Shown: positions 41,558 to 59,728, counted from the stretch's first letter. The stretch: 64,000 bases of DNA from Candidatus Binatia bacterium (GCA_963664395.2 OY761159.2:2336001-2400000), one strand, 5' to 3'. Notes: a model not told the origin generated them from the sequence alone. Translations and numbers: made by a program.

Positions 41558-41561
41558 GCAG

Positions 41562-42437: not shown

Positions 42438-42463
42438 GTCTTCCCTCCTTAGACCACGCCGCG

Positions 42464-43336: not shown

Positions 43337-43352
43337 ATAATGCTCCTGTGGA

Positions 43353-44378
43353 CTAGCGAAAGGCCGGAATAACTTTGCTGGTAAACAGCTCCAGATGGGG
43401 CTGAATCCAGCTTGCCGGCAGACCCGGCGGGAGCGTCCACGAATAATAATGCGTCAGCGGGGTCTCTAGGGCATAGTCACGGATCATCTGAATGCAGGTG
43501 TTCACATCTACTACCTGAAACAGGCCCGATTCACGTAATGCCGCTGTATCCGGCACCTTTGGAAACAGGGGCATGCCGGCCTTTTCCGACCACTCGGCAT
43601 AGGCGTTGACCTGATAGCGGACGTGTTCGGCGGCTTCGTTCCAGGTCTTGTCCGGGTCTTCGGACGGAATCAGCCAGAAATAGCCACCCGCGAGGCGAAT
43701 ATCCGTGGTGGACTTCCCGACTTTCTCCAGGGCGGTCACATAGCGTTCATACGCCTCTTTCAGCGGGCCGACGCCGATGTAGCCGTCGCCATATTTTGCC
43801 GCCCGGCGGAGTGCCGGTGGGGTGAAGCCGCCGACCCAAATCGGTGGCCGGGGTTGCTGAATCGGCTCCGGGGTGAGTTTGGCTTTGGTCACCGTGTAAT
43901 ATTTCCCCTCAAACGTCAGGGTTTCGCCCTCCCACAGGCGCCGAATGATTTCGAGGCCCTCATTCGTGCGGGCGCCGCGTTCTTTGCTCGAAACCGCGAA
44001 GCTCTCAAACTCCTCGACTTTATACCCAACGCCCACACCTAGCTCGAACCGGCCACCCGAAATCACGTCCACCGTAGCGGCATCTTCAGCCAGTCGGACC
44101 GGGTTGTGAAAAGGCAGCAGCACCACACTCGTCCCGATATGGATTTTCTTGGTCCGAGAGGCAATCGCGGCGGCAATCGGCATCAGCGCGGGAGAATAGC
44201 CATCTTCGATAAAGTGGTGCTCGGACAGCCAGATATCGTCAAAGCCGTTCTCCTCTCCCCATACGATCTGATCGATGATTTCGTTGTAGAGTTGGTCATA
44301 GGGACGTTTCCAGGCGGGCGGGTTGCGAAAGTCGTACCACATGCCAAAGCGAATTTTCGGATTTCCATTTTCACTCAT
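43353..44378 (-). CDS. LLM-class flavin-dependent oxidoreductase
   Basis: GFDDIWLSEHHF, HNPVRLAEDAATVD.ISGGR and PPIWVGG. Confidence 0.88.
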   Translation of the reverse strand: MSENGNPKIRFGMWYDFRNPPAWKRPYDQLYNEIIDQIVWGEENGFDDIWLSEHHFIEDGYSPALMPIAAAIASRTKKIHIGTSVVLLPFHNPVRLAEDAATVDVISGGRFELGVGVGYKVEEFESFAVSSKERGARTNEGLEIIRRLWEGETLTFEGKYYTVTKAKLTPEPIQQPRPPIWVGGFTPPALRRAAKYGDGYIGVGPLKEAYERYVTALEKVGKSTTDIRLAGGYFWLIPSEDPDKTWNEAAEHVRYQVNAYAEWSEKAGMPLFPKVPDTAALRESGLFQVVDVNTCIQMIRDYALETPLTHYYSWTLPPGLPASWIQPHLELFTSKVIPAFR

Positions 44379-44604
44379 CGGACTGTCCTCCTTGTGCAAT
44401 CGACGCTGCATCTTATGGTCTCAGTTTGAAAATGGAAAGCGGACGCTGCTACAATTGATTCGTCAGGTAGCGTCTCTTCGCTCTGGAGAATCCCGGGCCT
44501 TCCCGCCTAGTTGACGGGTCGCGGGGTTCTATGTATAGCAAACGGGTTTCACGAGAGAAGAGCGCTGGAGAGAAGACGCTCTCTCTCCTTGGGAAAGGTA
44601 TGGC

Positions 44605-46017
44605 ATGACGGATCAGATTGGCTCTGAAACAAACCCCCTCCGCGTCGCTATTTTTGGCTCGGGACCGGCCGGATTCTACGCTGTTGGCGAACTGCTTCGG
44701 CAAAAAGATATTGCTGTTCGGGTTGACCTGTTTGACCGCCTGCCGACTCCCTATGGGTTGGTCCGGGGCGGCGTGGCACCGGATCATCAAAAAATTAAAG
44801 CGGTCATTCGACAGTACGAGAAATTTGCCAATCGGCCCGGCTTTCGCTTTTTCGGAAACGTGATCTTTGGTGAAGATCTCCGGCTGGCCGACACCCTGGC
44901 CCACTACCATCAAGTCCTGTTTTCGACCGGAGCGGAATCCGACCGGCAGCTCGGCATTCCGGGGGAAGACCTGGCCGGCAGCGACCCGGCGACGATCTTT
45001 GTCGGCTGGTATAACGGGCACCCTGATTGCCGCGATCTCAACTACGATCTGAGCGAGGTCGAACGTGTCGCCGTAATCGGAAACGGCAATGTGGCCATGG
45101 ATGTCGCCCGTATTCTGGCCCGCTCTATTGAAGAACTCTCAAAAACGGATATCGCCGACTATGCGCTCGGAGCGCTCAAGAAAAGTGCGGTCAAGGAGAT
45201 CTATCTGCTGGGCCGACGGGGGCCGGCGCAAGCGGCTTTTACCAACCCCGAGATTCGGGAACTGGCGAAAATGCCGATCACCGACCTGGTCGTCGAGCCG
45301 AAAGACCTCGAACTCGACGAGGCGAATGCCGAGTTCCTGGCGCAGGCCACAGAGCCGGTGCATCGGCGCAATATGGATATCCTGACGGCCCAGATTCCCA
45401 AGGGCGAGGGAACGGCCCCCAGGAAGATTCGGGCGCGATTTTTTGTTTCTCCGGTCGAACTTTACGGGACCGATCATGTTGAGGGTATGAGGCTCGAAAA
45501 AAACCGTCTGGTGAAGGATGATAGCGGGACGCTGCGCGCGCGCGGAACCGGAGAATACGAGGAGCTGCCGAATATTCATATGGTCTTTCGCTCCATAGGC
45601 TATAAGGGCCATCCGCTGAAAGACGTTCCGTTTGACGAGCGCGCCGGGATTATTCCGAATCAAACCGGTCGGATCATCGACCCGGAAACACAGGCGCCTA
45701 TTGAGCGGCTGTATGTTGCCGGCTGGATCAAGCGTGGGCCGTCTGGAGTGGTGGGTACGAATAAGCCGGACTCGATTGAAACCGTCGGGCTCATGCTGGA
45801 AGACCTGCAACAGGGTAAAGTGCCCAATACTATCCACGCCAGCGAAGAGGCAATTTCTGCTCTGCTGGCGGAGAAGGGTGTCCGCTACGTCTCTTTTGCT
45901 GACTGGAAATATCTGGATCAGATAGAAGTCGAGAACGGGAAAAAAGTGGGCAAGCCGCGTGAGAAGATGACGACCGTCGCGGAGATGCTGACCGCACTCG
46001 ACGCCAGAGGGGCATAG
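44605..46017 (+). CDS. Ferredoxin--NADP+ reductase, FprA/adrenodoxin-reductase type
   Basis: GSGPAG, PYGLVRGGVAPDH, FVGWYNGHP, IGNGNVAMD, GRRGP and GWIKRGPSG. Confidence 0.92.
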   Translation: MTDQIGSETNPLRVAIFGSGPAGFYAVGELLRQKDIAVRVDLFDRLPTPYGLVRGGVAPDHQKIKAVIRQYEKFANRPGFRFFGNVIFGEDLRLADTLAHYHQVLFSTGAESDRQLGIPGEDLAGSDPATIFVGWYNGHPDCRDLNYDLSEVERVAVIGNGNVAMDVARILARSIEELSKTDIADYALGALKKSAVKEIYLLGRRGPAQAAFTNPEIRELAKMPITDLVVEPKDLELDEANAEFLAQATEPVHRRNMDILTAQIPKGEGTAPRKIRARFFVSPVELYGTDHVEGMRLEKNRLVKDDSGTLRARGTGEYEELPNIHMVFRSIGYKGHPLKDVPFDERAGIIPNQTGRIIDPETQAPIERLYVAGWIKRGPSGVVGTNKPDSIETVGLMLEDLQQGKVPNTIHASEEAISALLAEKGVRYVSFADWKYLDQIEVENGKKVGKPREKMTTVAEMLTALDARGA

Positions 46018-46057
46018 TGCTTTTCAGTACGATTCATAACAAAAAGGAGCAGGCCGC

Positions 46058-47035
46058 ATGAAAGCTATTCGTATACACGAGTTTGGTGATCCGGAGGTGT
46101 TGCAGCTCGAAGAGGTCGCGGACCTGACCCCTGGGGCGGGTCAGGTCGTGGTGCGCATGCACGCGGTCGGCGTCAATCCGGTTGAGACCTATATTCGGTC
46201 CGGCATCTATCCCAAACCGCCCACGCCGTTCACGCCTGGTTCGGACGGGGCCGGTGTGGTCGAGGCTGTGGGCGAGGGGGTAGACCGGGTTGCCGTGGGC
46301 GACCGGGTGTATCTGGCCGGTTCTCTCAGCGGCACGTATGCCGAACAGGCGTTGTGCAAACAGGAGCAGGTGCATCCGCTGGGCGAGCAGGCGTCGTTCG
46401 CCCAAGGAGCTGCGGTTTTTGTGCCCTATGCTACTGCCTATCAGGCACTCTTCCACTGTGGTCATGCCGCACCTGGCGAAACGCTTTTTGTACATGGGGC
46501 CAGTGGTGGGGTAGGCATCGCCGGGGTACAGCTCGGCCGGGCCGCCGGCATGACGGTGATCGGAACCGCGAGTACGGAACGCGGGCGTCGGCTCGTGTCC
46601 GAACAAGGCGCGCAGCATGTTCTCGATCATAGTGCCGTGTCGTATCTGGAAGAGGTGAAGACCCTGACGGGTGAGCGGGGCGTTGATGTTATTTTGGAGA
46701 TGCTGGCCAACGTCAATCTCGCCAAGGATATCGACCTGCTCGCCATGCGCGGACGGGTGGTTGTCATCGGCAATCGGGGCGAGAAGAACCAGGGCACGAT
46801 CGAGATCAATCCCCGGGCGGCCATGATGCGGGACGCCGCCATCATCGGCATGACCTTACGCAACGCCACGCCGCAGGATCATGTTCGTATCCACTCAGCC
46901 CTTGTGGCCGGTCTGGCAAACGGCACGCTGCGGCCCGTAATCGGACAGGAACTCCCTCTGGCCGAAGCCGCCCAGGCCCACCGCGCCGTAAGCGGGACAG
47001 GCAAAGCCTACGGGAAGGTGGTGCTGATACCGTAG
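46058..47035 (+). CDS. NADPH:quinone reductase (zeta-crystallin-like MDR)
   Basis: GVNPVE, PGSDGAG, HGASGGVG and GKVVL. Confidence 0.92.
   Translation: MKAIRIHEFGDPEVLQLEEVADLTPGAGQVVVRMHAVGVNPVETYIRSGIYPKPPTPFTPGSDGAGVVEAVGEGVDRVAVGDRVYLAGSLSGTYAEQALCKQEQVHPLGEQASFAQGAAVFVPYATAYQALFHCGHAAPGETLFVHGASGGVGIAGVQLGRAAGMTVIGTASTERGRRLVSEQGAQHVLDHSAVSYLEEVKTLTGERGVDVILEMLANVNLAKDIDLLAMRGRVVVIGNRGEKNQGTIEINPRAAMMRDAAIIGMTLRNATPQDHVRIHSALVAGLANGTLRPVIGQELPLAEAAQAHRAVSGTGKAYGKVVLIP
46972..47035 (+). repeat. 64-bp direct repeat, left copy (3' end of the quinone reductase gene)
   Basis: 61/64 identical to 47847-47910 by manual alignment. Confidence 0.92.
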
Positions 47036-47151
47036 AGCGGCGCCTCATCTTTCCCATCCGTCGCCTCACTAGCTGGCTAACGACACCCTCAATGACAGCC
47101 TGAAACGGAGAATTTCAGGGATGACCATATAGGCTTGCCCTAGGCGAATTT

Positions 47152-47174
47152 GCTATATACCCTGTGTATATAGC
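47152..47174. promoter_or_regulatory. Probable VapBC operator
   Basis: Perfect palindrome GCTATATAC-CCTGT-GTATATAGC just upstream of the vapB RBS (AGGAGG). Confidence 0.75.
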
Positions 47175-47191
47175 TCAGGAGGGTGTTTTCA

Positions 47192-47425
47192 ATGCCTATT
47201 GGTTCTGTATTTGTTAATAACCGTACCCAGGCGGTCCGGTTACCCGCCGATACTCGTTTTCCGGACGAAGTGAAACAAGTCAATGTTCGCGTTGTCGGGA
47301 AGGATAGGGTGTTATCTCCCGTGGATAGCGCATGGGACAGCTTCTTTTTCTCTGAAGAGCGTGTGAGCGATGATTTTCTGGAAGAACGGGCGTCCCACGA
47401 GCAAGCTGAGCGGGAAGCCTTTTGA
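47192..47425 (+). CDS. vapB: Antitoxin VapB (AbrB-type)
   Basis: SVFVNNRTQAVRLP, WDSFF and DDFLEER..QAERE. Confidence 0.93.
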   Translation: MPIGSVFVNNRTQAVRLPADTRFPDEVKQVNVRVVGKDRVLSPVDSAWDSFFFSEERVSDDFLEERASHEQAEREAF

Positions 47426-47829
47426 TGTTGAAATACATGCTCGATACCAATATTGCCATTTATGTTATCAAGCGCCGCCCGATAGACGCCCTGGATGCCT
47501 TTAACCGGCACGCCGGCCAGTTGTGTATCAGCTCAATCACGCTGGCTGAGTTGATGCACGGCGTAGAAAAAAGTGCCAGACCCGATCACAACCTGCGGCA
47601 GGTTGAAGACTTTGTTTCCCGTTTGGTTGTGCTTGAGTATGGGCATAAGGCGGCTGCCCATTACGGAGATATCCGGGCAGCGCTGGAACGGAAGGGGAGG
47701 CCCATCGGCGTAAACGATTTACATATAGCGGGTCACTCTCGAAGCGAAGGATTAACCCTGGTCACCAATAATCTGAAGGAGTTTGAGCGGGTGGAATGCC
47801 TGCGGCTGGAGAATTGGCTTTCATCTTGA
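47425..47829 (+). CDS. vapC: PIN-domain toxin VapC (enteric VapC-like)
   Basis: YMLDTNI, SSITLAEL, IGVNDLHIAGH and LVTNN..EF. TGATG overlap with vapB. Confidence 0.95.
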   Translation: MLKYMLDTNIAIYVIKRRPIDALDAFNRHAGQLCISSITLAELMHGVEKSARPDHNLRQVEDFVSRLVVLEYGHKAAAHYGDIRAALERKGRPIGVNDLHIAGHSRSEGLTLVTNNLKEFERVECLRLENWLSS

Positions 47830-47846
47830 GGATAAAAAATCCAAGT

Positions 47847-47910
47847 CCAGGCCCACCGCGCCGTAAGCGGGGCGGGCAAAGCCTACGGGAAGGTGGTGCT
47901 GACACCGTAG
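47847..47910 (+). repeat. 64-bp direct repeat, right copy
   Basis: Duplicate of 46972-47035 with 3 substitutions. Confidence 0.92.
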
Positions 47911-47935
47911 CGCTACGCCCCTTTCTACTCAGGCT

Positions 47936-49414
47936 CTACCGGCTTACTTTTATCAGACGATAACCCTGCGGCGGCTTTGGGTTGTCTGCCTTGTCTACCG
48001 TCCAGTGCGGGGGCAGGGCCGGCAGGGGCGGTGGCGTGTCACTACAGCCTGAGTCGCTGCCGTCGATACGCCTATCAAAGTCATTGTCGATCCCGTCGGT
48101 GCAAGCAGTCGATGAGGCAACAGACTCGGGGTCGGGGCGCGACAGAGCGTTGCCCCACTCCTCAGGGATGCTCTCCCACAGGTGATCGAAAAAGGATTCG
48201 AAGCTTGTAGTCAATTGGGGTGACTTGAGCACGAGCGTATTCTCGTCGTTCTCGAATTCTCCAGCCCTGGTCCAATTCATCGACCCGACCACAACTGCAC
48301 GTCCGTCGATAGCCGCAGCCTTCATATGCATCTTGCCGCCCCAGTTCTCGACTTTGACGGGAATGCCTGCCGTGCGCAGCAACTCGTGCTTGGAATACTC
48401 ATTCCGGGCAGAGGTCGCGTCAACGATGACCCGTATGTCAACGCCTCGGCCGTGCGCTGCGATCAGTTCCGCGGTCACGAACTTGTTGGTCAGATAGAAC
48501 ACGGCCAAGTCAATGCGCTGCCGAGCACCGGCAATGAGTGTCTGTACGCCTTTACGCATGGCCTTGTCCTGCGGTGAGAACCAGACTTCGACCTGAGTGT
48601 CGTTCAGTTCCAGACGATCTACGCCGTTGCCCGTTTTCAACTGGTGATAGCGGTCGGCCCACATCTGCTCAAACTCTTCAGTATACACATCGGCGAGTTG
48701 GGTCGAGTCGATTACAGCCGCAACGTTGGCGTTATAGCCGCCCGTGCCGGAGTCCGACAGGTTGCACGAGCCGGTCCAGACCCAGCGCCCGTCCACGATG
48801 AAAAACTTGTTGTGCATGATCCGGTTGGTCGTGCTTTCATCGAACGGTTCCCGACCGGCGTGTGCCGCCACGAGCCAGCGATCACCCAAGTCGTAGGCCA
48901 GGCATTGTAGCGGCCCCTTGAAGCCTTCCGGGCGGGGACAGGAGGGCTTCCGAGGTTTCCAGTCGTTTCGTTGGTCCAGGATCGTTTCGGCGTCGAAATC
49001 GTTGCGGATATTCTTGAGCCGGCGGACCCATAGATCGGTGGACGTATAATAATTCCCGCCGTCTCGCTGACGATCTACTACGCCGCGCACGGCCACCCCG
49101 CGTTCTTGGGCGGCAACCAGGGCTTCCAGAAGTTGTGTTTGCTTGCGCATCCCATACACCGCAAAGTCGATGGAGCTTTGCGCACCTTGGATCAGTTCCA
49201 GTAAGCGAACACAAATAGGGGCCTCGCAGCGGTCACCGGGAGTTGCGAACCGAAGTGGGTCAGTAAACAGCAATTCGACCGGTTGCTTATCTGCATGAAG
49301 CGGCCGCTCCGGCGTGCATGCGGCCCAGACTCACAGGGGCATAATCGCGGCGAGGCACGTGAATCGGACTATACAGCGCAAGCCAATCCTTGAATTCTGT
49401 TCGTGCAGTCTCAT
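47936..49414 (-). pseudogene. Phospholipase D-superfamily lipoprotein with an in-frame TGA in its signal peptide; the downstream part 47936-49273 is open
   Basis: Two HKD motifs (HNKFFIVD, HMKAAAID). ATG 49414 is in frame and reads ...LAAIMPL*VWAAC, with TGA at 49331-49333. Confidence 0.65.
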
Positions 49415-49634
49415 GGCGCTCTTCCAAAATCGTCTCTTCAGCGAAGAGGAAGAAATAGACGCTGTTGGCGACGAAGAGTCAAGCACGTAAGGGGCGCGCG
49501 ACGACTACAGAAGAGTGGGGTCTCCTATCGGAAAGCCCAGCGACCGGTGTAGTCTAAAAACGGTGTGAAATATCCATCAAGCTGTGGTGCTGCCCTGATA
49601 GCGGCTTACCGTTGGAATGAATTTGAGCAATTTT

Positions 49635-50213
49635 TTAGGTCTTTGCTACATGTCTAGGTCTGTGGCCTTCAATACGCATAACTTTACCTTCACGTATGAG
49701 CAAACCCAATATACTGTATGATAGGTAATCTTTTTGATTGCCTTGATAATCACTCCGTAAGCCAAGCAGGCTTGCCGCATCAGAATTTAGAATACCAGCC
49801 GGATTCGCTTTTGCTAATTCATATACTGATGATTTCAGCAACCCAAGACCAAGTTGGGCTCTTTCAACGGCCCCCTGGGGCACAACAACACCAGGGCGTT
49901 CTTTTCCCGCCGTACCACTCGGTACAACAGCGTTCGTTAAAATACCTTCTGTTTCCTCGGTCCCGAACGCTGAGATAAGCTCAGATTCCAATTTTAAAGC
50001 CTGAATTTCTGTTAGATCATCTATCAGAATATCGACCAATGGCTCCATTCCAGAATTTCTTATTCTCTTAATCCGGGTGTACTTTCTTGTATTGTCTGGT
50101 TTTACCAGATGATCAAATGCTCTACTTCCCGTTCCTTTCCCGATATAGAATGGCTGCGCAGGATTCGAGCTTGGATCTTTTAGAGCATAAACATAATAGA
50201 AATTTGTAGCCAT
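49635..50213 (-). CDS. GIY-YIG domain protein (LEM-3-like type), AT-rich
   Basis: YYVYALKDP...FYIGKGTGSR, ALKLESELI and LTN. Visibly lower GC than its neighbours. Confidence 0.82.
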   Translation of the reverse strand: MATNFYYVYALKDPSSNPAQPFYIGKGTGSRAFDHLVKPDNTRKYTRIKRIRNSGMEPLVDILIDDLTEIQALKLESELISAFGTEETEGILTNAVVPSGTAGKERPGVVVPQGAVERAQLGLGLLKSSVYELAKANPAGILNSDAASLLGLRSDYQGNQKDYLSYSILGLLIREGKVMRIEGHRPRHVAKT

Positions 50214-50399
50214 AATCTTTCCCATTCAGCCTGCAAGCTTTGTGTCACCTGTAACAATATCCTGGGCGTCCGTCAGGCATATGGCAAACAGCGTGACAAG
50301 CGAATCAGTGCAGTCTTCATACTGATCCGCGGTTTTTGACTGCGTTGGTCATGAATCGATCGGGAGCGGAGGGGTGGGCGGATAATACCGGGCGGAAGG

Positions 50400-51686
50400 T
50401 TACTGGCCCATGCGTCCAAAATCAATCTGGATATTGGAATAAACCTCGCTCAGGCTGGAGATGTGCTCCCAGGGGACGCCTAAGCCTTCGCGGCTATTCC
50501 CCATCATGATGGGTTGCAGATCTTCGACGGCAAGCGGCTGGGCATCGGTGAAGACGAGTACGCCGGCCGCGGTAATCTGGGGCTGGTCGAACTCGATGAA
50601 TCGATCCGTCTCCCAGATAGCATCCTGCATCGTCAGCATCAGCATCTTTGTTTCGCCCGGTTGGAGCAGTCCGTCGGGCTCCACCTGCATCGCCGGAATC
50701 TCGCTTTGCGTATCCGGATAGAGATCGTGTGTGGCGGGATTAATGAAAGACAAATAACTGGTCGTGAACTTGCGTAAGACCACCGCTTGATCCGAGGTGT
50801 TGGTCGCTTCAACCTGCATACTCATGGACCGCTTGGTTGTGTTATAGCGCAACTCTTTGACCGTAGTCTGGACGGCACTCGGATGGGACAGACTGGACAG
50901 GTCCCACATTCTGGCCGTCTGGTGTGGAATGATCGGCGGGCGCCCCGAGTTCGTGACCCACAGCCCTCCGACAATCAGGACAACCAAAACCACCCCGAAA
51001 ATAAGAGACGTTCGACGATCAGCGGGAGTGATTTGTTCCTCATCAACGCCTTTCAACAGGAGCGCGTAACGGACGAGCAGCGGCCGTCTGGCCCAATAGC
51101 CGAGCCAGGCGAGCCCAAGAATCCCGAACACGACATGCCAGCCGACAACCCGTCCAAACCCGTAGTGCTCCAGGTCTATGGTCTCACCGGTTGCCGGAAT
51201 CTGTACGGTATAGGACGGCGGGGCGTCACCCGGAACAACTGTGATCCACTTGGCCGGACCAACCAGCCCGCCCGTACCGGACAGATTGACCATTGGATGG
51301 ATATGATAACGGCCCGGCTCTCGCGCTTGGAGGATCATCTTAAAATCGTAGATCCCTCCTAACTCGACATTAAACGCGTTCTGGATAAAGCGATCATTCA
51401 CCCAGCGTTCGCGTACGGCGAGTTTCGGGCCCGGAACCAGGATACCGATCCACGCCAACTCCGGCGTGGTCAGTATCCGCGGCCAGGAATTCATCACTCT
51501 GAACTTGCCGGTGACGGTCATGGTCTCGTTAACGGCGAGTCGCTCGTGCGAGAACTCCACATTAAAAAATGAGACCCCGCGCATGCGGACAAAGGGTTCG
51601 AGGTTGTGCTCACCATGAGCCTGGGCAACGGGCGCATAGACAAACGAAGCCGCAGCAAGGCCGAGGGCCAGGATGACAGAAATCAA
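50400..51686 (-). CDS. xmoB: Copper membrane monooxygenase subunit B (PmoB/AmoB-like); 5' end uncertain
   Basis: Signal peptide ending AQA, then HGE. EPFVRMR, PGP, YDFK..LQAREPGRYHIHPM, two TMs and a second cupredoxin-like domain (DAIWETDR). Confidence 0.92.
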   Translation of the reverse strand: MISVILALGLAAASFVYAPVAQAHGEHNLEPFVRMRGVSFFNVEFSHERLAVNETMTVTGKFRVMNSWPRILTTPELAWIGILVPGPKLAVRERWVNDRFIQNAFNVELGGIYDFKMILQAREPGRYHIHPMVNLSGTGGLVGPAKWITVVPGDAPPSYTVQIPATGETIDLEHYGFGRVVGWHVVFGILGLAWLGYWARRPLLVRYALLLKGVDEEQITPADRRTSLIFGVVLVVLIVGGLWVTNSGRPPIIPHQTARMWDLSSLSHPSAVQTTVKELRYNTTKRSMSMQVEATNTSDQAVVLRKFTTSYLSFINPATHDLYPDTQSEIPAMQVEPDGLLQPGETKMLMLTMQDAIWETDRFIEFDQPQITAAGVLVFTDAQPLAVEDLQPIMMGNSREGLGVPWEHISSLSEVYSNIQIDFGRMGQ

Positions 51687-51770
51687 AACACCCCCCTCCC
51701 CGGTCCTCGGTTCGGCCGCCCGACCCGGCCAGCAATACTCCTGTTCATCCTTTAATCCAGTAAATCCTGG

Positions 51771-52514
51771 TCAGGTTTGGCGCAGGACTTTCTGCAGCGG
51801 CATAACGCCGAGCGCTTTTCCTATCCCGAGGCCAACCCAATACATGATGGTGCAGGTAATGCCGGCCATTAACACGCTGATCCAGATACGCTGACCCAGG
51901 AAGGCTTGCAGCGTGCCTTCATCAATCCGTCGCAAGTATTCCGGTGTTTGAGGGCGGATGAAGTAATAGCCCATCAGATCGGCAATGGTAAATGTCTTGC
52001 CAAAAAGAGTAACCGGCTGGAGGAAGGGCATGAGCATCAGCCAGTTGACGGGATAAAAGAGAAACCCCCATAAAAATCCGCCAAACAGACTCGTCACCAA
52101 ATAGCTGCGTGACCAAAAGAGAATCAGGTCAAGCGCCAGCGCCATCGGAATGGTCGTCGCCGGCCAGACAAAATTGAGCGGATAATACTCCAAGCCGTAA
52201 AAGCTGAATATCCGACTCAGCCAGGCCCCAATCAAAACGAACACCGCGGTAAACGTGGCACCCAGCGGCAGGCGCAGATAGTACCAGGCCAGATAGTGGC
52301 CCACCGCGGTCACCAACATGGCGGCGCTCGGGCCGGCGATCGGCCACCACAGCTTGTCTTTCCAATCAACCCAGAAATCCCAGTCGCCCATATAGAGCAT
52401 GCGACTGACGTGGGGGATGACGGTGAAAAAGCCGACCAGGGCCAGGAGCAGCATGACATCAAAGACCTTGGCCATCTTGTGATGCCCAAGCGCGGCAAGT
52501 TCTTCGGCCTTCAT
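51771..52514 (-). CDS. xmoA: Copper membrane monooxygenase subunit A (PmoA/AmoA-like)
   Basis: GDWDFWVDWKD..WWP, RLPLGAT, YPLNFVWP, LFYPVNW and TPEYLRRIDEGTL. Confidence 0.95.
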   Translation of the reverse strand: MKAEELAALGHHKMAKVFDVMLLLALVGFFTVIPHVSRMLYMGDWDFWVDWKDKLWWPIAGPSAAMLVTAVGHYLAWYYLRLPLGATFTAVFVLIGAWLSRIFSFYGLEYYPLNFVWPATTIPMALALDLILFWSRSYLVTSLFGGFLWGFLFYPVNWLMLMPFLQPVTLFGKTFTIADLMGYYFIRPQTPEYLRRIDEGTLQAFLGQRIWISVLMAGITCTIMYWVGLGIGKALGVMPLQKVLRQT

Positions 52515-52559
52515 GATTCCCAGCTCCTCCCCGAGGGCAGTGCGTGGTCCGCCGGGGGG

Positions 52560-53366
52560 CTAGTTCGCCTCGGTTGATGCCATTGCTCCCAGGTTTTCAA
52601 AAATGCGCGGCACGGTCTTAAACAGCAGCGCAAACCCGGCAAAAAAGAAATATGTCGCCCAGGCAAACGGAAAATGGTAGGGCTGCACAAACAGTTCTTC
52701 GGTAATCCAGCTTGAGTGTCCCAGCTCATTAAACGCCACATTGGCGAACAGGAACCAGCCGCCGGCCGGAAACAGCAGATAGCAGATAGGGATGCCTTTG
52801 CCCCCTTCACCGACATACAGATGGTGTAAACGGTTATAGGCGTACCAGGAGCTGACGCCGGTCATGATGAGCAACATGGGAAAGGTATAGAAGAAGAGGG
52901 GAATGTGGCTGGGCGTAAAGGCCGTATCGCGCACCACGATTTGATGCCACGAGGCGTCTTGCTCGGCAAAATAGCTGACCCCAAAGCCGAACATGGCTGC
53001 CACCGCAACCGTGGCCCACAGCTTGCCGATGTGATTCAGCTCGTGCTCGGGGTCGATGCGCCCCAGTTCTTTTTTCTGAACGGCGCAGAGCGAACAGGGT
53101 TTGCGATAGGACGTAAAGCCGATGATGGCGGTAGCTATGAGGACTGCCCATTCGACATACAAGAGGCCCAGCCAATACGTCGCAAATTCGGGTGTCGTCG
53201 CATCCAGACCAACCGGGAACCACCATTTGCCCTGCCACAGTCTGATGAGAACCAACGACAGCAGCCCCAGGCCGGCGCCGATGAGCAGAAAACGCATGAA
53301 CGGCATCTCGCCGTGTGCGGGCTGCACCGCTCGCACTTCGGCCGTTTCGACCACTGGGCTTTCCAT
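52560..53366 (-). CDS. xmoC: Copper membrane monooxygenase subunit C (PmoC/AmoC-like); upstream in-frame ATG 53390 is interrupted by TAG
   Basis: GLD..PEF.TYW, SYFAEQDASWHQ.VVRDTAFTPSHI and NELGHSSWITEELF..PYH. Confidence 0.94.
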   Translation of the reverse strand: MESPVVETAEVRAVQPAHGEMPFMRFLLIGAGLGLLSLVLIRLWQGKWWFPVGLDATTPEFATYWLGLLYVEWAVLIATAIIGFTSYRKPCSLCAVQKKELGRIDPEHELNHIGKLWATVAVAAMFGFGVSYFAEQDASWHQIVVRDTAFTPSHIPLFFYTFPMLLIMTGVSSWYAYNRLHHLYVGEGGKGIPICYLLFPAGGWFLFANVAFNELGHSSWITEELFVQPYHFPFAWATYFFFAGFALLFKTVPRIFENLGAMASTEAN

Positions 53367-53555
53367 TGTTGCTACCTATGTGGCTGCCATCGGAGGTCCC
53401 TCCCTGTAAGTTGCCGCTCAGCCCCAAGGCTCCTGTACATGATCCCTGTATCGGACGACCCCGGAGCGATAATAATGCTATGTATGGAATATCAACCCTG
53501 TACCACATATTCTCCAAAATGTGCAAACGCTGAAACGCCAGATTGAGAAAAGAAA

Positions 53556-53942
53556 ATGGCAAGCAAAGGCCGGCCTTTTCGGACCGTCTCTTTTGAGGGT
53601 TTTGAGATTCTGGTGGGGAAAGGGGATGTGCAGAACGACCGGCTGACCTTCGACATTGCAGAGCCTGAAGACTTTTGGCTGCATGTGGTCAACGTCCCCG
53701 GCAGCCATGTTGTGGTACGCAATCCCGACCAACTCGCCGAACTGCCGCCCGACGTATTGCAGCACGCGGCCCGGCTTGCGGCCTGGCATTCCAAGGCGCG
53801 CGGCAGCCGGGGCAAAGTGGAAGTCCATATCTGCCGAGCCGCGGACGTATCCCAGCCGTCCGATTTTCCGCCCGGCAAGGTGCTGTTGCGCCGCTGGCAG
53901 AGTCTCAGAGTCTATTCGCTTGAGCCTCCCGACGAGTCGTAA
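53556..53942 (+). CDS. Stand-alone NFACT RNA-binding domain protein (DUF814-like)
   Basis: ILVGK...NDRLT, DFWLHV..PGSHVVVR and AARLAAWHSKAR. Confidence 0.85.
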   Translation: MASKGRPFRTVSFEGFEILVGKGDVQNDRLTFDIAEPEDFWLHVVNVPGSHVVVRNPDQLAELPPDVLQHAARLAAWHSKARGSRGKVEVHICRAADVSQPSDFPPGKVLLRRWQSLRVYSLEPPDES

Positions 53943-54054
53943 TGGTTGTTCAACTCTACCTCGAAGGCGTCCCCTGCCCGCCAGGTGAAACATATTCGTC
54001 AGCCGCGCGATACACGAATGCTATACTGTCCGGCGCGGTCGCCCCTGGAGAAGT

Positions 54055-54186
54055 TTACCCCTGCGGGACACGAACACTCATGGCCTCGTCGACCGCAGCT
54101 ACGACGGCTTCGGCCAGGGGTTCGTCGGCCCCGGCCTCCCTGAGCGCCTTGACGGCTTTGTTGGTGTCGAATGCGAGCGCAGGCAT
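54055..54186 (-). pseudogene. 43-codon remnant resembling the N-terminus of DUF1640/CCDC90-like coiled-coil proteins
   Basis: Manual translation MPALAFDTNKAVKALREAGADEPLAEAVVAAVDEAMSVRVPQG*. AGGA RBS. Not in the ORF track. Confidence 0.55.
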
Positions 54187-54319
54187 GTGCTTCCTGTTAC
54201 TTCAAGCGGTCCACCCCGCCAATGGTGAGTGTCTACCCCCGTACCAATCATTTCGGAAATGAACTTGTCGGCTGACGCTCGGCTTAACCGTCATTCGGGA
54301 CTACAGAGATCGGCACCTC

Positions 54320-55909
54320 TCATTCTCCCAGGAAATGTTGGATGAGTGTCCAGGCTGCTTCCTCCAGAGCGTCGACTCCGTTAGAGTTCGTGGTGAGGAG
54401 TACCGCAAAGTCCTTGTTTGGGGCAACATACACACGAGCGTGCGAATAATGAGGGTACCACCCCCCCACATGGTGTAGTAATGGTCCGTCCGCCCAGCTT
54501 CGCTCCGCCCCAAACCATCCCAGGGCGTAATTGGCTCCCAAATAGATACTCAGGTCACGGTTAAAGTTTTCTGATGCCCCGGGTTCGTCCTCCACGGGGG
54601 TATGCAGTTTTCGGAATGTCTCGGGTTTGAGAAAATGACTTTCTCCTCGGGCGCCGGCGAGATGCAGGGCAACAAATTTCCCCCAATCCTCAATCGAACT
54701 GTGAACGAGCGCAGCCGGTCCAACTGGAGACCTAATTTGCTCAATAGCAACAGTGCTTGGTTCAACCGGCGTACGCCCAATATGCCCGTGAGGTTGGGAG
54801 TTTGTCTCGAGGTTTTCTGGCGGGCCAAAGTCTGCCGACGCCATCCCAAGCGGGACAAAGAGCCGTTCGGCCATGAGTTCTTCCCACGACTTGCCAGTGG
54901 CGGCCTCGGCTATCGCTCCGGCGATAACATAGCCGGCGACCTCTGAATATTCCCAGCGTGACCCTGGCGGGACTTCTGGGGCTTGTTGTAGCACCAACTC
55001 AACCATCTGAAGGCGTTGCTCAATTATCGTCCCAGTCAGAGGATGCTCAGGATCGATCAGATCCTCAGCCGGCAACCGAGGCAGGCTGGAGCGATGGGCG
55101 AGCAACTGCTCAACGGTCACGGCCTGCCACGCAGCATCAATTGTACCGAGCAGGTCGGGGAATGCTTCGCCGATAGTCGTCTGCCAGGAGAGGACTCCCT
55201 CTTCCACAAGCAGGGCAATCAGCGTGGCGGTCATGGCTTTGCTACATGAAAAAAGCCGCCAGCGGTCCTGCACCGTCACCCGCTCGGGGGAGCCGACACG
55301 TCGCACCCCAACAGCGCCCAGACCAATCAGTTCCCCAGCGTGGACAATGCCGCCCGCCAGGGCTGGAAGCTCGTACTTCTGACGAATCGGCTCAAGCAAG
55401 TCATTCAGGTTCTCTGGCCCAACCCCCTCCCTGGTCATCTCCAACTCCAGATGTTGGGTACTCTGATTCCACGCAAACGTTGAGGTCTCGCCTGTTGCGG
55501 GGAAATCCGGGACACTAACCTGTGCGCTCGCCCCTCTCACGAACGGCTCCCCCAGGGTCACCACTGTAAACGTACTCCGGGCAAACTCTACGCCATTATC
55601 GTAGGCCACCGCGGTGTGTTCGCCATCGTCCAGATTCCCCCAATTCCAGATGGCCACAAAGCCGACATCTGCGTCGCCACAGGCACCTGCATCAAGGACA
55701 TCAGTCCGCTCGTTGCCATATAGCAAGGGAATCGGGTCCCCACCGTAAAAACGGATCGTGAGATCTCCGTTGGCCTTACACTTCCAGCCTGAGATGACTC
55801 CGATACCTGAGTAGTTTAAGCCGTCGCCAGGATTCTCTAGCGTTGCAGTATGGGCCAGAGACGGAGCCAAGAGAGCGAAGACAATACAGATGCGGATCAG
55901 GGAATACAT
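54320..55909 (-). CDS. Secreted serine hydrolase (beta-lactamase/PBP-like fold) fused to an uncharacterised N-terminal beta-rich domain
   Basis: Signal peptide, then a ~135-aa module (LENP..SGIGVISGWKC...). Catalytic SCSK, YSE and HVG motifs, LLAHRSSL. Confidence 0.82.
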   Translation of the reverse strand: MYSLIRICIVFALLAPSLAHTATLENPGDGLNYSGIGVISGWKCKANGDLTIRFYGGDPIPLLYGNERTDVLDAGACGDADVGFVAIWNWGNLDDGEHTAVAYDNGVEFARSTFTVVTLGEPFVRGASAQVSVPDFPATGETSTFAWNQSTQHLELEMTREGVGPENLNDLLEPIRQKYELPALAGGIVHAGELIGLGAVGVRRVGSPERVTVQDRWRLFSCSKAMTATLIALLVEEGVLSWQTTIGEAFPDLLGTIDAAWQAVTVEQLLAHRSSLPRLPAEDLIDPEHPLTGTIIEQRLQMVELVLQQAPEVPPGSRWEYSEVAGYVIAGAIAEAATGKSWEELMAERLFVPLGMASADFGPPENLETNSQPHGHIGRTPVEPSTVAIEQIRSPVGPAALVHSSIEDWGKFVALHLAGARGESHFLKPETFRKLHTPVEDEPGASENFNRDLSIYLGANYALGWFGAERSWADGPLLHHVGGWYPHYSHARVYVAPNKDFAVLLTTNSNGVDALEEAAWTLIQHFLGE

Positions 55910-56006
55910 AAAGACTTCCTCGTAGTACTGATAGAGAAACGGCTTACTCTACCCAAAGATATAAGCTCACTATTTATACGGGGTTATTCGGATCATTCCA
56001 GCCTTG

Positions 56007-56026
56007 TACCTTTGTACATAAAGGTA
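56007..56026. promoter_or_regulatory. Palindrome overlapping the XRE gene start (possible autoregulatory operator)
   Basis: TACCTTT-GTACAT-AAAGGTA. Confidence 0.5.
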
Positions 56027-56343
56027 TGGACAGAAAAATTCAGGTCGGACGGCGGGTCAGAAATCTGCGTAAACTCCGCAAACTCTCTCAGGAAGCGCTG
56101 GCTGATAGAGTGTCAACGAGCGCCAAATATCTCAGCCGGATCGAGATAGGAAACGAGAACCCTACCATAGACCTGCTGTTTCGGCTGGCGGATGGCTTGA
56201 GTGTCGAACCCTACGAAATGTTGTGTTTTGAAGAAGGTGAGCCGGTACGCCAATTACGGACAAGAGCGGCGAAGCTCATAGACGAAGTTCCAGACAAGGA
56301 CATCGCGCGGGTTGTCGGACTGCTCGAAGCCGTACTGCACTAA
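56026..56343 (+). CDS. XRE-family HTH transcriptional regulator
   Basis: GRRVRNLRK..LSQEALA..YLSRIEIG.ENPT. Confidence 0.9.
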   Translation: MDRKIQVGRRVRNLRKLRKLSQEALADRVSTSAKYLSRIEIGNENPTIDLLFRLADGLSVEPYEMLCFEEGEPVRQLRTRAAKLIDEVPDKDIARVVGLLEAVLH

Positions 56344-56410
56344 GAGCGGAATCCGAAGCTCTGAAAAATCTAGCCCATTTTACGATAGGCTCTCGCCACG
56401 CAGGGGGCCC

Positions 56411-56486
56411 CGTCATGCCGGACGTGATCCGGCATCCAGAGGGCAGGGGGCCGAGAGCCTGGATTCCGGCCTGCGCCGGAATGACG
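56411..56486. repeat. REP-like composite palindrome, copy 2
   Basis: cgtcatgccggacgtgatccggcatccag...ctggattccggcctgcgccggaatgacg. The first arm is the reverse complement of the last arm of the 32331-32405 copy. Confidence 0.8.
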
Positions 56487-56541
56487 TTGCTGGTGGATAC
56501 ACAGCATCGTAAAGTGCCCTAGCCGTATAGATTACCCCCGT

Positions 56542-59500
56542 TCAATCCCCGAAGGCTTCCTCTTCTTTTATTGGGGCTGGGACCGGAGGCGATTCTTGCG
56601 CCGGCTTACGGCGAAAAATTCGGCGTGGCAGGTTTCTCAGGGCCGGCATCGTGCGCCCTAGCCACGATTCGAGATCATCGAACAACGAATAGGCGACCGG
56701 GGTCACCAGCAAGGTGATCAATAGGCATAAACTCTGTCCGCCAATCACAACGACCGCAATGCCACGATGACTTTCCGCGGCCGGGCCCTGGCCGACCAGA
56801 ATCGGAATCATGCCGGCCACGAGGGCTAAGGTCGTCATCAGAATCGGGCGCAGGCGTTCTTTGTTGGCCCGTAGAATGGCCTCGTCGCGCGGCAGACCTT
56901 CGGCCCGCAAATTGATCGTATGGTCAATTTGCAGGATCGAATTTTTCTTCACAATCCCGAATAACAAGAGCATACCCAGAATCGCGAACAAACCTAAGTG
57001 CTGGCCGGCGATATACAGCGCCAGCAAGGCAAAGGGCACGGCCAGCGGCAAGGACAGCATGATCGTAATGGGGTGGAGAAAACTTTCAAACTGCGCGGCC
57101 AGGACCATATACATGCCGATGAGAGACAACAGAAAAGCAAACTGAAAGCTTTCCATCATCTCTTCAAACATCTTGCCCATGCCGGTCACCCCGGTGGTAT
57201 AGCCCAGCGGTAGGCCCATTTTCTCGACCTCGGCATCAATGTCTGCAATCGCGTCACCGAGCGCCTTGTCTTTGGCCAGGTTGCCGGTAACCGTAATCTG
57301 GCGCTGTCGGTCCTGGCGGTCAATTTGCACCGGACCAGTGCCTGGAATCAGATCGACAACATTACTTAATATGACCTGCCCAACAGACACCGACGGGATC
57401 GCGACCTGTTGAATCACCTCTGGTCGATTCCGACTCTCAGGCGTCAGGCGCAGGCGCACATCGTATAATTCATCGCCTTCGCGATAGGTCGTAATTTTCT
57501 CACCCGCGATCATAATACGCAGGGTCGAAGCAATATCCGCCGCCTCAATGCCGAGATCGGAAGATTTCTGTCGGTTCAGATGGACTTGGAGTTCGGGGCT
57601 CCCACCCTCGAACGTCGAGTCCACATCTCGCAGACCCGGCATGCGCTGTACGCGGGTTTTCAAATCTTCGGAATATCGTTGCAGCGTCAGCAGGTCCGGG
57701 CCGCGCAAGTTGTAAGAGACATCGACATTCTGGATCCCTCCACCACTGACCGGCAGTATCTGGTCTACACTAATGCGGAGGTTGGGAAAGCCTTGTATCT
57801 TCTCACGGGCCAAATCCATGATCTGACTCTGGTGGAGGGTCCGTTCCGAGTAATGCACGAGGGTGACGACAATTTTTGACTTGGTGACCGATTCGCCTAC
57901 GGTTGAACCAATCTCGGTCAGCAGATGGTTCACACCCGGAAGGGGATGAATTTCTTCCTCAATCTGGCGTGTCACGGCTTCAGTTTGGGCCAACGAATAG
58001 CCGGGCGGTGTCTTGATATTGATTTCAAACTCCCCCCGGTCGTCGCTGGCCATCAGGCTGGGGCGGACAAGACCTGCAATAAAAGGGGTAGAAGCAAACA
58101 CGCCCAGGGTGAGGCACACAATCACCCAGCGGTGGCGCATCGACCACTTCAGCATGGCCATATACGAACGATCAATGAGCCGGTAGAAGCGTGACTCGCG
58201 TGAGGAATGGGCCTGACCGGCAGCGTGCCCGTCAAGGTGTTTGGGCAGAAAGCGTGAGCACAGCATGGGCGTGAGGGTAAAGGCGACCAGCAGCGAGACC
58301 ATGATAGAGAACGCCATGGTAAACCCAAAGCTGCTCAGCCACATGCCGATGATCCCCTTGAGAAAGCCCACCGGAATGAAGATGACAACCAGAGACAAGG
58401 TTGTGGCGCTGACGGCCAAGCCGACCTCGGCCGTAGCGGCGCGCGCGGCTTCAAAGGCGTTCATGCCCTTTTCTTCGATATAGCGATAAATATTTTCCAG
58501 TACGACAATCGCGTCATCAATGACAATGCCCACGGCCAAAGTGAGCGCCAGCAGGGTGACACGATTGAGGGAATATCCGGCCGCGGCCAGCAGGGTGTAG
58601 GTCGAGATGATGGAAACCGGAATAGCGATGGCGGCAATGAGGGTTGAGCGCAGATTGCCGAGAAAGAAATACACAATAATGCTGGCAAACAGCGAGCCCA
58701 GGATGAGGTGCTGCTCGACCTCGTGCACCGAAGCTTTGACAAAATCCGACTGATCGCGCGTCACCAACGCTTCGACACCCGGCGGCAGGAGTTGCTGAAC
58801 ATCAACCAGGCGCTCCTTGACCGCTTCGACCGCGGCTACCGTGTTCGACCCGGACTGTTTGCGAATGATAAGAGACACGGCGTTCTTGCCGTCGTAGCGG
58901 GACAATGAGCGGGGCTCTTCAACGCCGTCTTCGACGCGGCCAATATCGGCCAGGGTGATAGGCACGCCGTCATTGGTGGCGACCACGATATCTTCGAACT
59001 CGCGGACCGATTTGACCCGTCCGAGCGTCCGCAGGATGGTCTCGCCGCTCTCTTGGGTGATGCGGCCGCCCGGAAATTCGACATTCTGCTTGGCCAGGGC
59101 CTCGGCGACGGTCCGGATTGCCAGCCCGTAGGCCTTGAGACGGTCGGGATCAACCAGGATATGAATTTCCCGTTTCCGCCCGCCTATTACATCGATGGCG
59201 CCGACTCCGGTCACCGACTCCAGCGGCTCTTTGACCTGATTCTCTGCGATTTCGGTCAGTTCTTTCAGACCGCGAAAGCCTGAGACGGTAATGGTGGCAA
59301 TAGGCGTGGCATCAATGTCGAACTTCTCGACAATCGGCGGGTCGGCATCTTCGGGCAGGTCGGCCAGGACCGTGCCCACCTTGTCGCGAACTTCCTGAGC
59401 GGCAATGCCGAGGTCTTTCTCCAGGACGAACTGCACAATAACTTGGGATAACCCCTCACGGGTGACTGACCGCAGCTCATCAATCCCGCTGACCGTGTTG

Positions 59501-59712
59501 ATGGCTTCCTCAATGACCTTGGTCACCTGGGCTTCAATCTCCTCCGGGCCGGCACCGGGCAGGGTGGTTGTCACCGTCACCACCGGCATTTCGACCTTGG
59601 GCATCAATTCCAGGGTGAGACTCTTGTAGGAAAACCAGCCTGCCACCACGAGCACTCCAATAAGCATGGTGGCAAAGACGGGCCGGCGAACACAGACATC
59701 GGCAAGAATCAT
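56542..59712 (-). CDS. RND efflux permease (AcrB/MdtB-like)
   Basis: RRPV, GIVIDDAIVVLEN, TLTPMLC, GIVKKNSIL and RLRPILMT. Confidence 0.95.
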   Translation of the reverse strand: MILADVCVRRPVFATMLIGVLVVAGWFSYKSLTLELMPKVEMPVVTVTTTLPGAGPEEIEAQVTKVIEEAINTVSGIDELRSVTREGLSQVIVQFVLEKDLGIAAQEVRDKVGTVLADLPEDADPPIVEKFDIDATPIATITVSGFRGLKELTEIAENQVKEPLESVTGVGAIDVIGGRKREIHILVDPDRLKAYGLAIRTVAEALAKQNVEFPGGRITQESGETILRTLGRVKSVREFEDIVVATNDGVPITLADIGRVEDGVEEPRSLSRYDGKNAVSLIIRKQSGSNTVAAVEAVKERLVDVQQLLPPGVEALVTRDQSDFVKASVHEVEQHLILGSLFASIIVYFFLGNLRSTLIAAIAIPVSIISTYTLLAAAGYSLNRVTLLALTLAVGIVIDDAIVVLENIYRYIEEKGMNAFEAARAATAEVGLAVSATTLSLVVIFIPVGFLKGIIGMWLSSFGFTMAFSIMVSLLVAFTLTPMLCSRFLPKHLDGHAAGQAHSSRESRFYRLIDRSYMAMLKWSMRHRWVIVCLTLGVFASTPFIAGLVRPSLMASDDRGEFEINIKTPPGYSLAQTEAVTRQIEEEIHPLPGVNHLLTEIGSTVGESVTKSKIVVTLVHYSERTLHQSQIMDLAREKIQGFPNLRISVDQILPVSGGGIQNVDVSYNLRGPDLLTLQRYSEDLKTRVQRMPGLRDVDSTFEGGSPELQVHLNRQKSSDLGIEAADIASTLRIMIAGEKITTYREGDELYDVRLRLTPESRNRPEVIQQVAIPSVSVGQVILSNVVDLIPGTGPVQIDRQDRQRQITVTGNLAKDKALGDAIADIDAEVEKMGLPLGYTTGVTGMGKMFEEMMESFQFAFLLSLIGMYMVLAAQFESFLHPITIMLSLPLAVPFALLALYIAGQHLGLFAILGMLLLFGIVKKNSILQIDHTINLRAEGLPRDEAILRANKERLRPILMTTLALVAGMIPILVGQGPAAESHRGIAVVVIGGQSLCLLITLLVTPVAYSLFDDLESWLGRTMPALRNLPRRIFRRKPAQESPPVPAPIKEEEAFGD

Positions 59713-59728
59713 ACGCTCTCCACAGGGC

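Follow-up and report, generated by a model that had tools for sequence, protein, structure and literature searches.

An intact, deep-branching copper membrane monooxygenase operon in a Candidatus Binatia genome and its probable role in small-alkane oxidation

The stretch of DNA analysed here (64,000 nt of a Candidatus Binatia bacterium, GCA_963664395.2, OY761159.2:2336001-2400000; hereafter the window, whose first letter is position 1) contains three genes of the family of copper membrane monooxygenases (CuMMOs), to which particulate methane monooxygenase (pMMO) and ammonia monooxygenase (AMO) belong. An original prediction, made by a model from the sequence alone, had placed three co-oriented genes in the order C-A-B at 50400-53390, and the open reading frames (ORFs) bear this out; at its upper end, that interval extends 24 nt further upstream than the xmoC ATG. 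Hereby, xmoC (52560..53366) encodes a membrane subunit of 268 aa with the CuC and CuD ligand sets, xmoA (51771..52514) a membrane subunit of 247 aa with the motifs GDWDFWVDWKD and QTPEY, and xmoB (50400..51686, TTG start) a periplasmic cupredoxin subunit of 428 aa. All three genes lie on the minus strand, separated by intergenic gaps of 45 and 84 nt. Their products match the Pfam families AmoC (PF04896, E = 6.5e-44), AMO (PF02461, E = 3.8e-61) and Monooxygenase_B (PF04744, E = 1.1e-98), respectively, all far above the gathering scores. The match of XmoB spans residues 25-383, leaving about 45 C-terminal residues outside.

The motifs quoted in the original prediction (HGE, HIH, DWDFWVDWKD, TPEY and two spaced patterns in XmoC) are all present in the translations. 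XmoC carries D137-x3-H141-x12-H154 and N213-x3-H217-x13-H231, and XmoB carries H24-G-E together with H128-I-H130. The N-terminus of XmoB resembles a signal peptide that ends in AQA directly before H24, the putative cleavage site being read from the sequence itself. In HMMER alignments the XmoB and XmoC motifs stand opposite the corresponding motifs of the pMMO chains 6cxh_A and 6cxh_C. In keeping with the structural (cryo-electron microscopy) literature on pMMO, we take D137/H141/H154 to be the CuC, N213/H217/H231 the CuD and H24/H128/H130 the CuB ligands. All nine ligand positions are invariant in 24/24 rows of the clade to which the window belongs (the window itself and 23 orthologous loci, the 24th, L018, having been left out for an XmoB match that is too short), and the XmoC ligand columns are also invariant in 26/26 rows related to actinobacterial Hmo and in 25/25 rows related to Pmo (75 aligned rows in all). 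For every subunit the best solved relative is 6cxh, with 168.4 bits for XmoA (6cxh_B), 258.9 bits for XmoB (6cxh_A) and 124.9 bits for XmoC (6cxh_C). Thus, in its subunits, gene order and ligands alike, xmoCAB is a genuine, intact CuMMO operon.

Upstream of xmoC and divergent from it lies a gene with an NFACT-R domain (PF05670; 53556-53942, plus strand). The 189 nt between the two genes (53367..53555, no strand assigned) presumably form the promoter region of the operon; since a sigma-70 consensus scan found no site in this gap, we only infer the promoter of xmoCAB. A scan of 50100-53700 for promoters and terminators returned two promoter-like sites against 2.2 expected from shuffled sequences, and six terminator-like sites against 3.7, all of them outside the gap upstream of xmoC. 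Metatranscriptome contigs of two runs skip 67 nt over the annotated start of xmoC (window 53315-53383), which points to strain variation at the 5' end of the gene and upstream of it; the true start codon may vary among strains.

One genome per GTDB species was scanned and the best 80 of 558 relatives were kept. Within this set, XmoA orthologues with 80-97% identity occur in 24 species-level genomes, and the 25th match drops to 47%. The C-A-B order, which is the one seen in most bacteria, is kept at 24/24 orthologous loci, with identities of 72-90% for XmoC, 80-97% for XmoA and 61-94% for XmoB; outside this clade, identities reach at most 43%, 47% and 41%, respectively. The 24 carrier records are labelled as Candidatus Binatia/Binatota (19), 'uncultured Enterobacteriaceae' (4) and Thermodesulfobacteriota (1). 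Five third-party records of metagenome-assembled genomes (MAGs) named 'uncultured Enterobacteriaceae bacterium' (L016, L017, L023, L027, L034) hold CuMMO operons, of which four belong to the Binatia clade, and one record named 'uncultured Halobacteria archaeon' (L032) holds an Hmo-side operon; these labels look like placeholders or mislabels.

Ratios of nonsynonymous to synonymous substitution rates (dN/dS; pairwise, Nei-Gojobori), calculated for the window against each orthologue, have medians of 0.145 (xmoC), 0.078 (xmoA) and 0.137 (xmoB) and a maximum of 0.196. Usable pairs numbered 22/24, 22/24 and 20/23, respectively, and all share the window sequence and are hence not independent. xmoCAB is under purifying selection. 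The locus sits within a 4.8-Mb contig, and in relatives on complete chromosomes. The upstream NFACT-R-domain gene is kept at 20/24 orthologous loci and a quinone-oxidoreductase-like gene of the zinc alcohol dehydrogenase family (46058-47035) at 19/24. The DNA between these conserved flanks and xmoCAB varies among species and encodes beta-lactamase-family, GIY-YIG and PLD-like proteins as well as a PIN-domain pair. GC contents of the operon bins (0.54-0.57) lie within the range of the window (0.54-0.63). Given the 4.8-Mb contig, the conserved flanks and the GC content, contig chimerism, a concern raised in the original prediction, is disfavoured, and recent transfer is likewise unlikely.

The divergence of the operon from the named enzymes of the family is pronounced. 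XmoA misses the AmoA cut-off of the NCBIfam models (NF041557/NF041640/NF041641 set; 223.5 vs 290) and XmoC that of AmoC (159.5 vs 319), whereas XmoB narrowly passes AmoB_BACT (342.6 vs 336). The pMMO equivalogs TIGR03078, TIGR03080 and TIGR03079 are all missed (XmoC 142.3 vs 280.6, XmoA 207.4 vs 318.15, XmoB 270 vs 394.9). With the equivalog cut-offs missed by XmoA and XmoC, and with at most 47% identity of XmoA outside its clade, the predicted distance from canonical Pmo and Amo holds up. A word-based search of 5.8 billion proteins returned 93 relatives with identities of 91, 80, 75, 57, 56, 55 and 53%, followed by values of 46% or less. An exhaustive HMMER search of 1.84 billion representatives clustered at 50% identity yielded 158 clusters at E <= 0.001, with the operon's own cluster (P0001) first and the next full-length cluster only 45% identical. 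Between AMO and pMMO chains XmoA hardly differs in score (165 vs 168 bits), whereas for XmoB and XmoC the AMO scores fall clearly short of those for pMMO. In 14 alignment columns one residue is common to at least 85% of 51 other CuMMOs and a different one to at least 90% of the rows of the clade; among these are three new histidines, XmoC R112H, XmoC P181H and XmoA Q73H.

Three trees were calculated, an XmoA tree of 100 rows from a quick search and two trees of concatenated CAB subunits. For the latter, 75 loci with all three subunits were thinned to 60 at 95% identity; a quick tree comprises 54 rows, after six further Binatia rows were dropped, and a careful, unrooted tree 39 hand-picked rows with bootstrap/SH-aLRT supports. 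Named anchors were taken from plasmids (M. dioxanotrophicus, Mycolicibacterium chubuense NBB4 hmoCAB and Methylomagnum pxmABC), and cluster look-ups identified several unnamed hits as Pxm from Methylocystis, Methylomonas, Methylobacter and Methylomagnum. P0244, a canonical Methylocystis-type PmoA according to PDB search (489 bits to 7s4m_F), is the sole canonical PmoA representative. P0242, P0243, P0252 and P0239 were also tried as canonical Pmo/Amo references and discarded, as PDB searches showed none of them to be canonical; a word-based search with P0242 for such references gave sequences of Porticoccaceae, Solimonas and Nevskia type instead. P0239, a database representative of 514 aa, matches AmoC with its N-terminal half and AmoA with its C-terminal half in a single ORF, and is either a natural C-A fusion or an assembly read-through or frameshift.

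A split with a quick-search support of 100 divides the XmoA tree: Verrucomicrobia Pmo, Pxm, Haliea-type and USC-gamma sequences stand with P0244 on one side, and on the other are found actinobacterial Hmo, the window clade and a group of Chloroflexota, Dormibacterota and Binataceae. The window clade and the environmental sequences P0004, P0006, P0009 and P0010 form a group with a support of 100 and a stem of 0.99. In the careful CAB tree the Pmo-type side (Pmo/Pxm/USC-gamma/Verrucomicrobia) is supported at 100/100 with a stem of 0.40 and the window clade at 100/100 with a stem of 1.08. The Hmo-type side (actinobacterial Hmo, Chloroflexota, Dormibacterota, Binataceae) excludes the window clade at 95/96 with a stem of 0.15, as it does in the quick 54-row tree with a support of 96. 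Three further Binatia-type loci (L046, L049, L053), 42-46% identical to the window XmoA, fall on the Pmo side and may be TUSC-like. The trees thus suggest that, among the characterised Pmo, Pxm and Hmo clades included, none encloses the window clade, which instead forms a separate deep branch. In line with the original prediction, which had expected novelty in the clade and not in the family, what may be new is this clade, together with the consistent two-enzyme arrangement described below. That novelty is narrower than the prediction implied, because CuMMOs of sponge Binatota (Bin18) have already been published and reported to be transcribed.

To define the distribution of the window type, here taken as at least 80% XmoA identity, we searched 401 Binatia genomes drawn evenly over the class. 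Besides the operon's own genome, it occurs in 25 of the 27 others of its genus and, within a second genus of that family, in 5 of 8 genomes; it was found nowhere else among the 401. One complete, single-contig genome of the own genus (G150) does not have it. Two of the DNA runs that contain the stretch are labelled 'sponge metagenome', and Murphy et al. (PMC8262859) describe the Binatota order Bin18, to which the host probably belongs, as sponge-associated. A Binatota host and the existence of CuMMOs in this phylum were both anticipated in the original prediction; the former is borne out by the record labels of close relatives, the latter by the passages available from PMC8262859, PMC8941161 and PMC9999580. 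The four environmental sequences that form the sister group of the clade are 53-57% identical, and a scan of metagenome contigs for this group gave a single contig of 1749 nt with 58% identity.

The host genome encodes a second CuMMO operon (L003; G000:C1:4290000-4306000, locus 6530-15399), located on the same contig at a distance of 1.9 Mb. Its order is C, A, an ORF of 119 aa (x) and B, with an ORF of 190 aa on either side of the operon; signal-peptide removal is predicted to leave histidine as the first residue of the x protein and of each 190-aa protein. A multicopper oxidase and a pyrroloquinoline quinone (PQQ) alcohol dehydrogenase of 595 aa follow, and the operon has PmoD-like neighbours. 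In the trees this operon falls with Binataceae, Chloroflexota and Dormibacterota on the Hmo side, and the two XmoA copies of the genome are only 34% identical. The window operon has neither an x gene nor His-first or PmoD-like neighbours, and therefore does not belong to the Binatia 'Actinobacteria/SAR324-type' (Putative pmoA Binatales) CuMMO. The Hmo-like second type is also found in 27/30 other carriers of the window type, the three exceptions being assemblies of 170-380 contigs, and many of the 401 Binatia genomes have the Hmo-like type alone. Given this co-occurrence and the frequent occurrence of the Hmo-like type on its own, the window operon is an add-on to genomes with an Hmo-like enzyme of their own.

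Four PQQ dehydrogenases of the methanol/ethanol family score above the TIGR03075 cut-off in the genome. After one of them come an SBP_bac_3 protein and a cytochrome c, the three genes forming a xoxF-J-G-like cluster (L096; G000:C1:2972000-2981000, locus 108-8305). The same locus also has a beta-propeller protein and adjoins a pentahaem cytochrome and a molybdopterin/4Fe-4S protein that resemble ActA/ActB of alternative complex III (ACIII). The scanned parts of the window contain no pmoD-like, CopC/D, hao or methanol dehydrogenase gene. To that extent the original prediction, which had seen none of these near the operon, holds; its picture of isolation from methylotrophy genes does not carry over to the genome, which has four PQQ dehydrogenases and a second operon with PmoD-like neighbours, a multicopper oxidase and a PQQ alcohol dehydrogenase. 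Fae, MCH and the RuBisCO large subunit were not found in the genome, which is 95.9% complete. This outcome agrees with the text of Murphy et al. (PMC8262859), which reports for Binatota no tetrahydromethanopterin (H4MPT) route and the presence of the serine cycle. For HAO, the profile PF13447 gave no match in this genome, nor did it in any control genome. Counting CxxCH motifs in 8004 frames of at least 150 aa, we found only two with at least four motifs, a multi-cytochrome-c fusion and the ACIII-type pentahaem protein, neither of them HAO-like. Since no HAO-like gene was found, energy-yielding nitrification is unlikely.

Six RNA-labelled runs contain part of the stretch, and four of these, from two studies, were compared over 46000-58000. 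Hereby, assembled contigs of the four metatranscriptome runs cover parts of xmoC, xmoA and xmoB, for example at 51597-52371 (5 differences in 775 letters), 52347-53315 and 52492-53496. Stretches left uncovered (49208-50410 and parts of 54020-55222) include strain-variable inserts and thus cannot serve as silent controls. The contigs establish presence in RNA libraries and are not proof of transcription. From the literature, passages of PMC8941161 report pmoA transcripts from sponge Binatota MAGs in 37/39 samples of Petrosia ficiformis, and passages of PMC9999580 report them in Aplysina aerophoba. Separately, a spike in depth at 56426-56826 in the RNA runs was considered as a small RNA and rejected, because 36 matches in the genome mark it as a dispersed repeat and neither Rfam nor tRNA searches gave a hit. 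The repeat unit at 56400-56490 (another copy lies near 32333-32415) is about 75-90 nt long, GC-rich, internally palindromic and intergenic, resembles a REP/MITE element and reaches a summed depth of 200-1400x in the metatranscriptome contigs.

In conclusion, we consider it probable, at roughly 65%, that xmoCAB encodes a functional CuMMO of its own deep-branching clade that oxidises small alkanes (C1-C4) and serves as an add-on isoenzyme. By analogy with the solved structures of pMMO and AMO, the subunits would form a membrane-bound (CAB)3 complex that draws electrons from the quinol pool and, at the CuC/CuD region of XmoC, inserts a single oxygen atom into a small substrate that is poorly activated, with XmoB supplying a CuB site that includes the N-terminal histidine. 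The substrate would be a small gaseous alkane (C1-C4), with a slight lean to C2-C4 over methane. Oxidation of the resulting alcohol would then fall to one of the genome's periplasmic PQQ alcohol dehydrogenases, which are unlinked to the operon, and accessory proteins of the second operon may act in trans. Because the window operon nearly always accompanies an Hmo-like CAxB operon with accessory genes of its own, a different substrate range or affinity is suggested, and not redundancy. Taken by itself, a C2-C4 alkane or alkene as main substrate has somewhat less than an even chance.

Several observations weigh against this assignment. At the 24 orthologous loci no linked accessory, alcohol dehydrogenase or regulator gene is conserved. 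The subunits point in different directions, as XmoB is closest to gammaproteobacterial PmoB (259 bits, compared to 183-190 for AMO) and XmoC is nearest to actinobacterial HmoC-type proteins (39-43% vs 30-38%), with XmoA about equally far from the two. The clade joins neither the side of the canonical PmoA P0244 nor that of NBB4 hmoCAB, so that phylogeny does not predict its substrate; moreover, a stem as long as the one observed is prone to misplacement, and the trees are without archaeal AmoA, named SAR324 and NC10 sequences, canonical betaproteobacterial Amo and canonical CAB loci. The RNA-run contigs, being assemblies for which DNA carry-over is possible, cover the flanking genes at similar summed depth, and the published text on transcripts (PMC8941161, PMC9999580), as far as available, does not specify which of the two operons was measured.

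Of the alternatives, a true pMMO deserves the most attention. Methane made inside the sponge would then be converted to methanol, passed to XoxF and assimilated through the serine cycle, and the Hmo-like operon would take C2-C4 alkanes. That XmoB passes AmoB_BACT and scores highest against gammaproteobacterial PmoB fits such a role, as do the xoxF-J-G-like cluster and the three further PQQ dehydrogenases, and an Hmo-like CuMMO in 27/30 carriers leaves room for a division of labour. In the literature, as far as its text was available, methane oxidation has been predicted and pmoA transcripts have been reported for sponge Binatota (PMC8941161, PMC9999580), and serine-cycle genes were found in all Binatota genomes analysed by Murphy et al. 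(PMC8262859). Yet the clade stays outside the group that contains the canonical PmoA representative (100/100), TIGR03080, TIGR03078 and TIGR03079 are missed widely, and Fae, MCH and RuBisCO were not found in the 95.9%-complete genome. A preprint (10.64898/2026.02.02.703227) furthermore puts Binatia pmoA-like clades with hydrocarbon monooxygenases and describes their methanotrophy modules as incomplete, though its available text does not explicitly address the window clade. On this balance we regard methane as a possible main substrate, but an unlikely one. Still less probable is ammonia, whether for nitrification or for co-metabolic oxidation in an ammonium-rich sponge. The top NCBIfam hits are indeed the bacterial AmoA, AmoB and AmoC models, one of which is passed, XmoA barely distinguishes AMO from pMMO chains, and CuMMOs commonly co-oxidise ammonia. 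Against this, no HAO-type gene was found (the PF13447 search having no positive control, and only two frames holding at least four CxxCH motifs), nor was RuBisCO, and the lower AMO scores of XmoB and XmoC make a role as AMO very improbable.

A further reading holds that another small molecule of the sponge is oxidised, for example a halomethane, an alkene such as ethylene, or a methylated compound of sulfur or nitrogen, and that the clade-specific residues reflect this substrate. The long stem (1.08), the restriction to two sponge-associated genera and the 14 clade-specific columns would suit a lineage specific to sponge symbionts that has diverged in function, be it towards such compounds or towards trace methane at very high affinity; hereby, XmoC H112 and H181 and XmoA H73 might alter the shape of the pocket or provide an extra metal site. 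Elsewhere in the window lie genes for an amidase, a dimethylformamidase-like protein and four luciferase-like monooxygenases, none of which is conserved beside the operon; the neighbouring genes form variable islands, and the canonical ligands are all unchanged. We therefore consider this functional divergence, like any main substrate outside the alkanes, alkenes and ammonia, rather improbable. Least credible of all is that xmoCAB has no function, as a decaying or silent paralogue, or is an artefact of assembly or binning. Such a view could appeal to the missing linked accessory genes and to G150, which lacks the window type, but it is at odds with intact reading frames in 24 species, dN/dS values of 0.08-0.15, the conserved chromosomal position, a surrounding contig of 4.8 Mb, complete chromosomes that carry the locus in relatives, and the appearance of xmoCAB in assemblies of RNA libraries. 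The assignment of xmoCAB to a small-alkane-oxidising CuMMO of its own clade thus remains the one we prefer.

The answer bears on a question beyond this locus. On the basis of "pmoA" genes and transcripts, sponge Binatota have been proposed to act as a sink for methane in oxygenated coastal water. The genome studied here and 27/30 other carriers hold two CuMMOs with XmoA proteins 34% identical to each other, and neither enzyme falls with verified methane enzymes. Whether methane, other small hydrocarbons or a different compound are consumed by these abundant symbionts depends on which operon the published work measured and on what each of the two oxidises. As it branches between the Pmo/Amo-type and the Hmo-type halves of the family, the window clade is useful for rooting and for identifying residues that govern substrate range. 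Sets of pmoA primers and marker databases in which Binatia make up one or two clades will overlook the window clade or assign it wrongly.

The strain-variable flanks at 47183-50225 and 54320-56343 contain a PIN-domain gene with a small upstream ORF, PLD-like and GIY-YIG proteins, an XRE-type regulator and a beta-lactamase-family protein of 529 aa with an extra N-terminal region; each of these genes occurs at only 0-4 of the 24 orthologous loci. The F420-type luciferase-like monooxygenases noted in the original prediction are present as four paralogues on the minus strand (37162-38178, 41562-42437, 42464-43336 and 43353-44411), in a cluster (36128-44411) that includes a zinc alcohol dehydrogenase and a major facilitator superfamily transporter on the same strand. 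A xanthine/uracil-family permease (27943-29682), the amidase (29700-31115) and the protein resembling the beta subunit of N,N-dimethylformamidase (32979-35354) may together constitute a locus for the catabolism of methylated amides (27943-35354). On the other side of the operon, a TetR regulator, a membrane-fusion protein and an AcrB-type resistance-nodulation-division pump are encoded at 56542-61532, followed by the R subunit of a type I restriction enzyme (61602-63998) that runs off the end of the window.

Compared to known systems, the closest in host and family are the published CuMMOs of Binatota. They were described in 2021, including those of both Bin18 genomes then available, with the organisations CAB and CAxB/CAxxB and with two copies in two genomes (PMC8262859, in the text available); the window operon may well be among the sequences analysed there. 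Host class, family, copper ligands and CAB organisation are alike, and the order, Bin18, is probably the same. Two Binatota CuMMO clades have been described, an Actinobacteria/SAR324 (bmoA-like) and a TUSC clade, both placed near hydrocarbon monooxygenases in the available part of the preprint 10.64898/2026.02.02.703227. In the present trees the window clade, with its stem of about 1.1, appears to be of neither type. The literature text searched does not single out a third, sponge-restricted Binatota CuMMO clade; figures and supplements lie outside that text, and the clade may already be drawn in one of their trees.

Gammaproteobacterial pMMO (6CXH/7S4L; also 1YEW/3RGB) is the best solved match of all three subunits and has the ligand motifs, the gene order and the subunit lengths in common with the operon, whereas the operon's scores lie far below the TIGR cut-offs, a 100/100 split separates it from P0244, and no H4MPT genes were found in its host. 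A second point of reference is the hydrocarbon monooxygenase HmoCAB of Mycolicibacterium chubuense NBB4 (pMYCCH.01, L084), which reportedly oxidises C2-C4 alkanes. Both operons have the order C-A-B, their XmoA proteins are 44.5% identical over 85% of the length, the window XmoC is, outside its own clade, nearest to actinobacterial C subunits, and the 100/100 split separates both operons from the Pmo type. Unlike the window locus, however, that of NBB4 has a methanol dehydrogenase dependent on N,N-dimethyl-4-nitrosoaniline (NDMA), a regulator and small downstream ORFs, and the group of actinobacterial and Binataceae sequences excludes the window clade (95/96). The Pxm enzymes of Methylomagnum, Methylomonas and Methylocystis, finally, resemble the window operon in being a divergent extra CuMMO copy beside another CuMMO, and P0032, P0054, P0063 and P0069 are among the word-based matches with 39-42% identity; they differ in their gene order, A-B-C as opposed to C-A-B, and in their position on the Pmo side of the trees.

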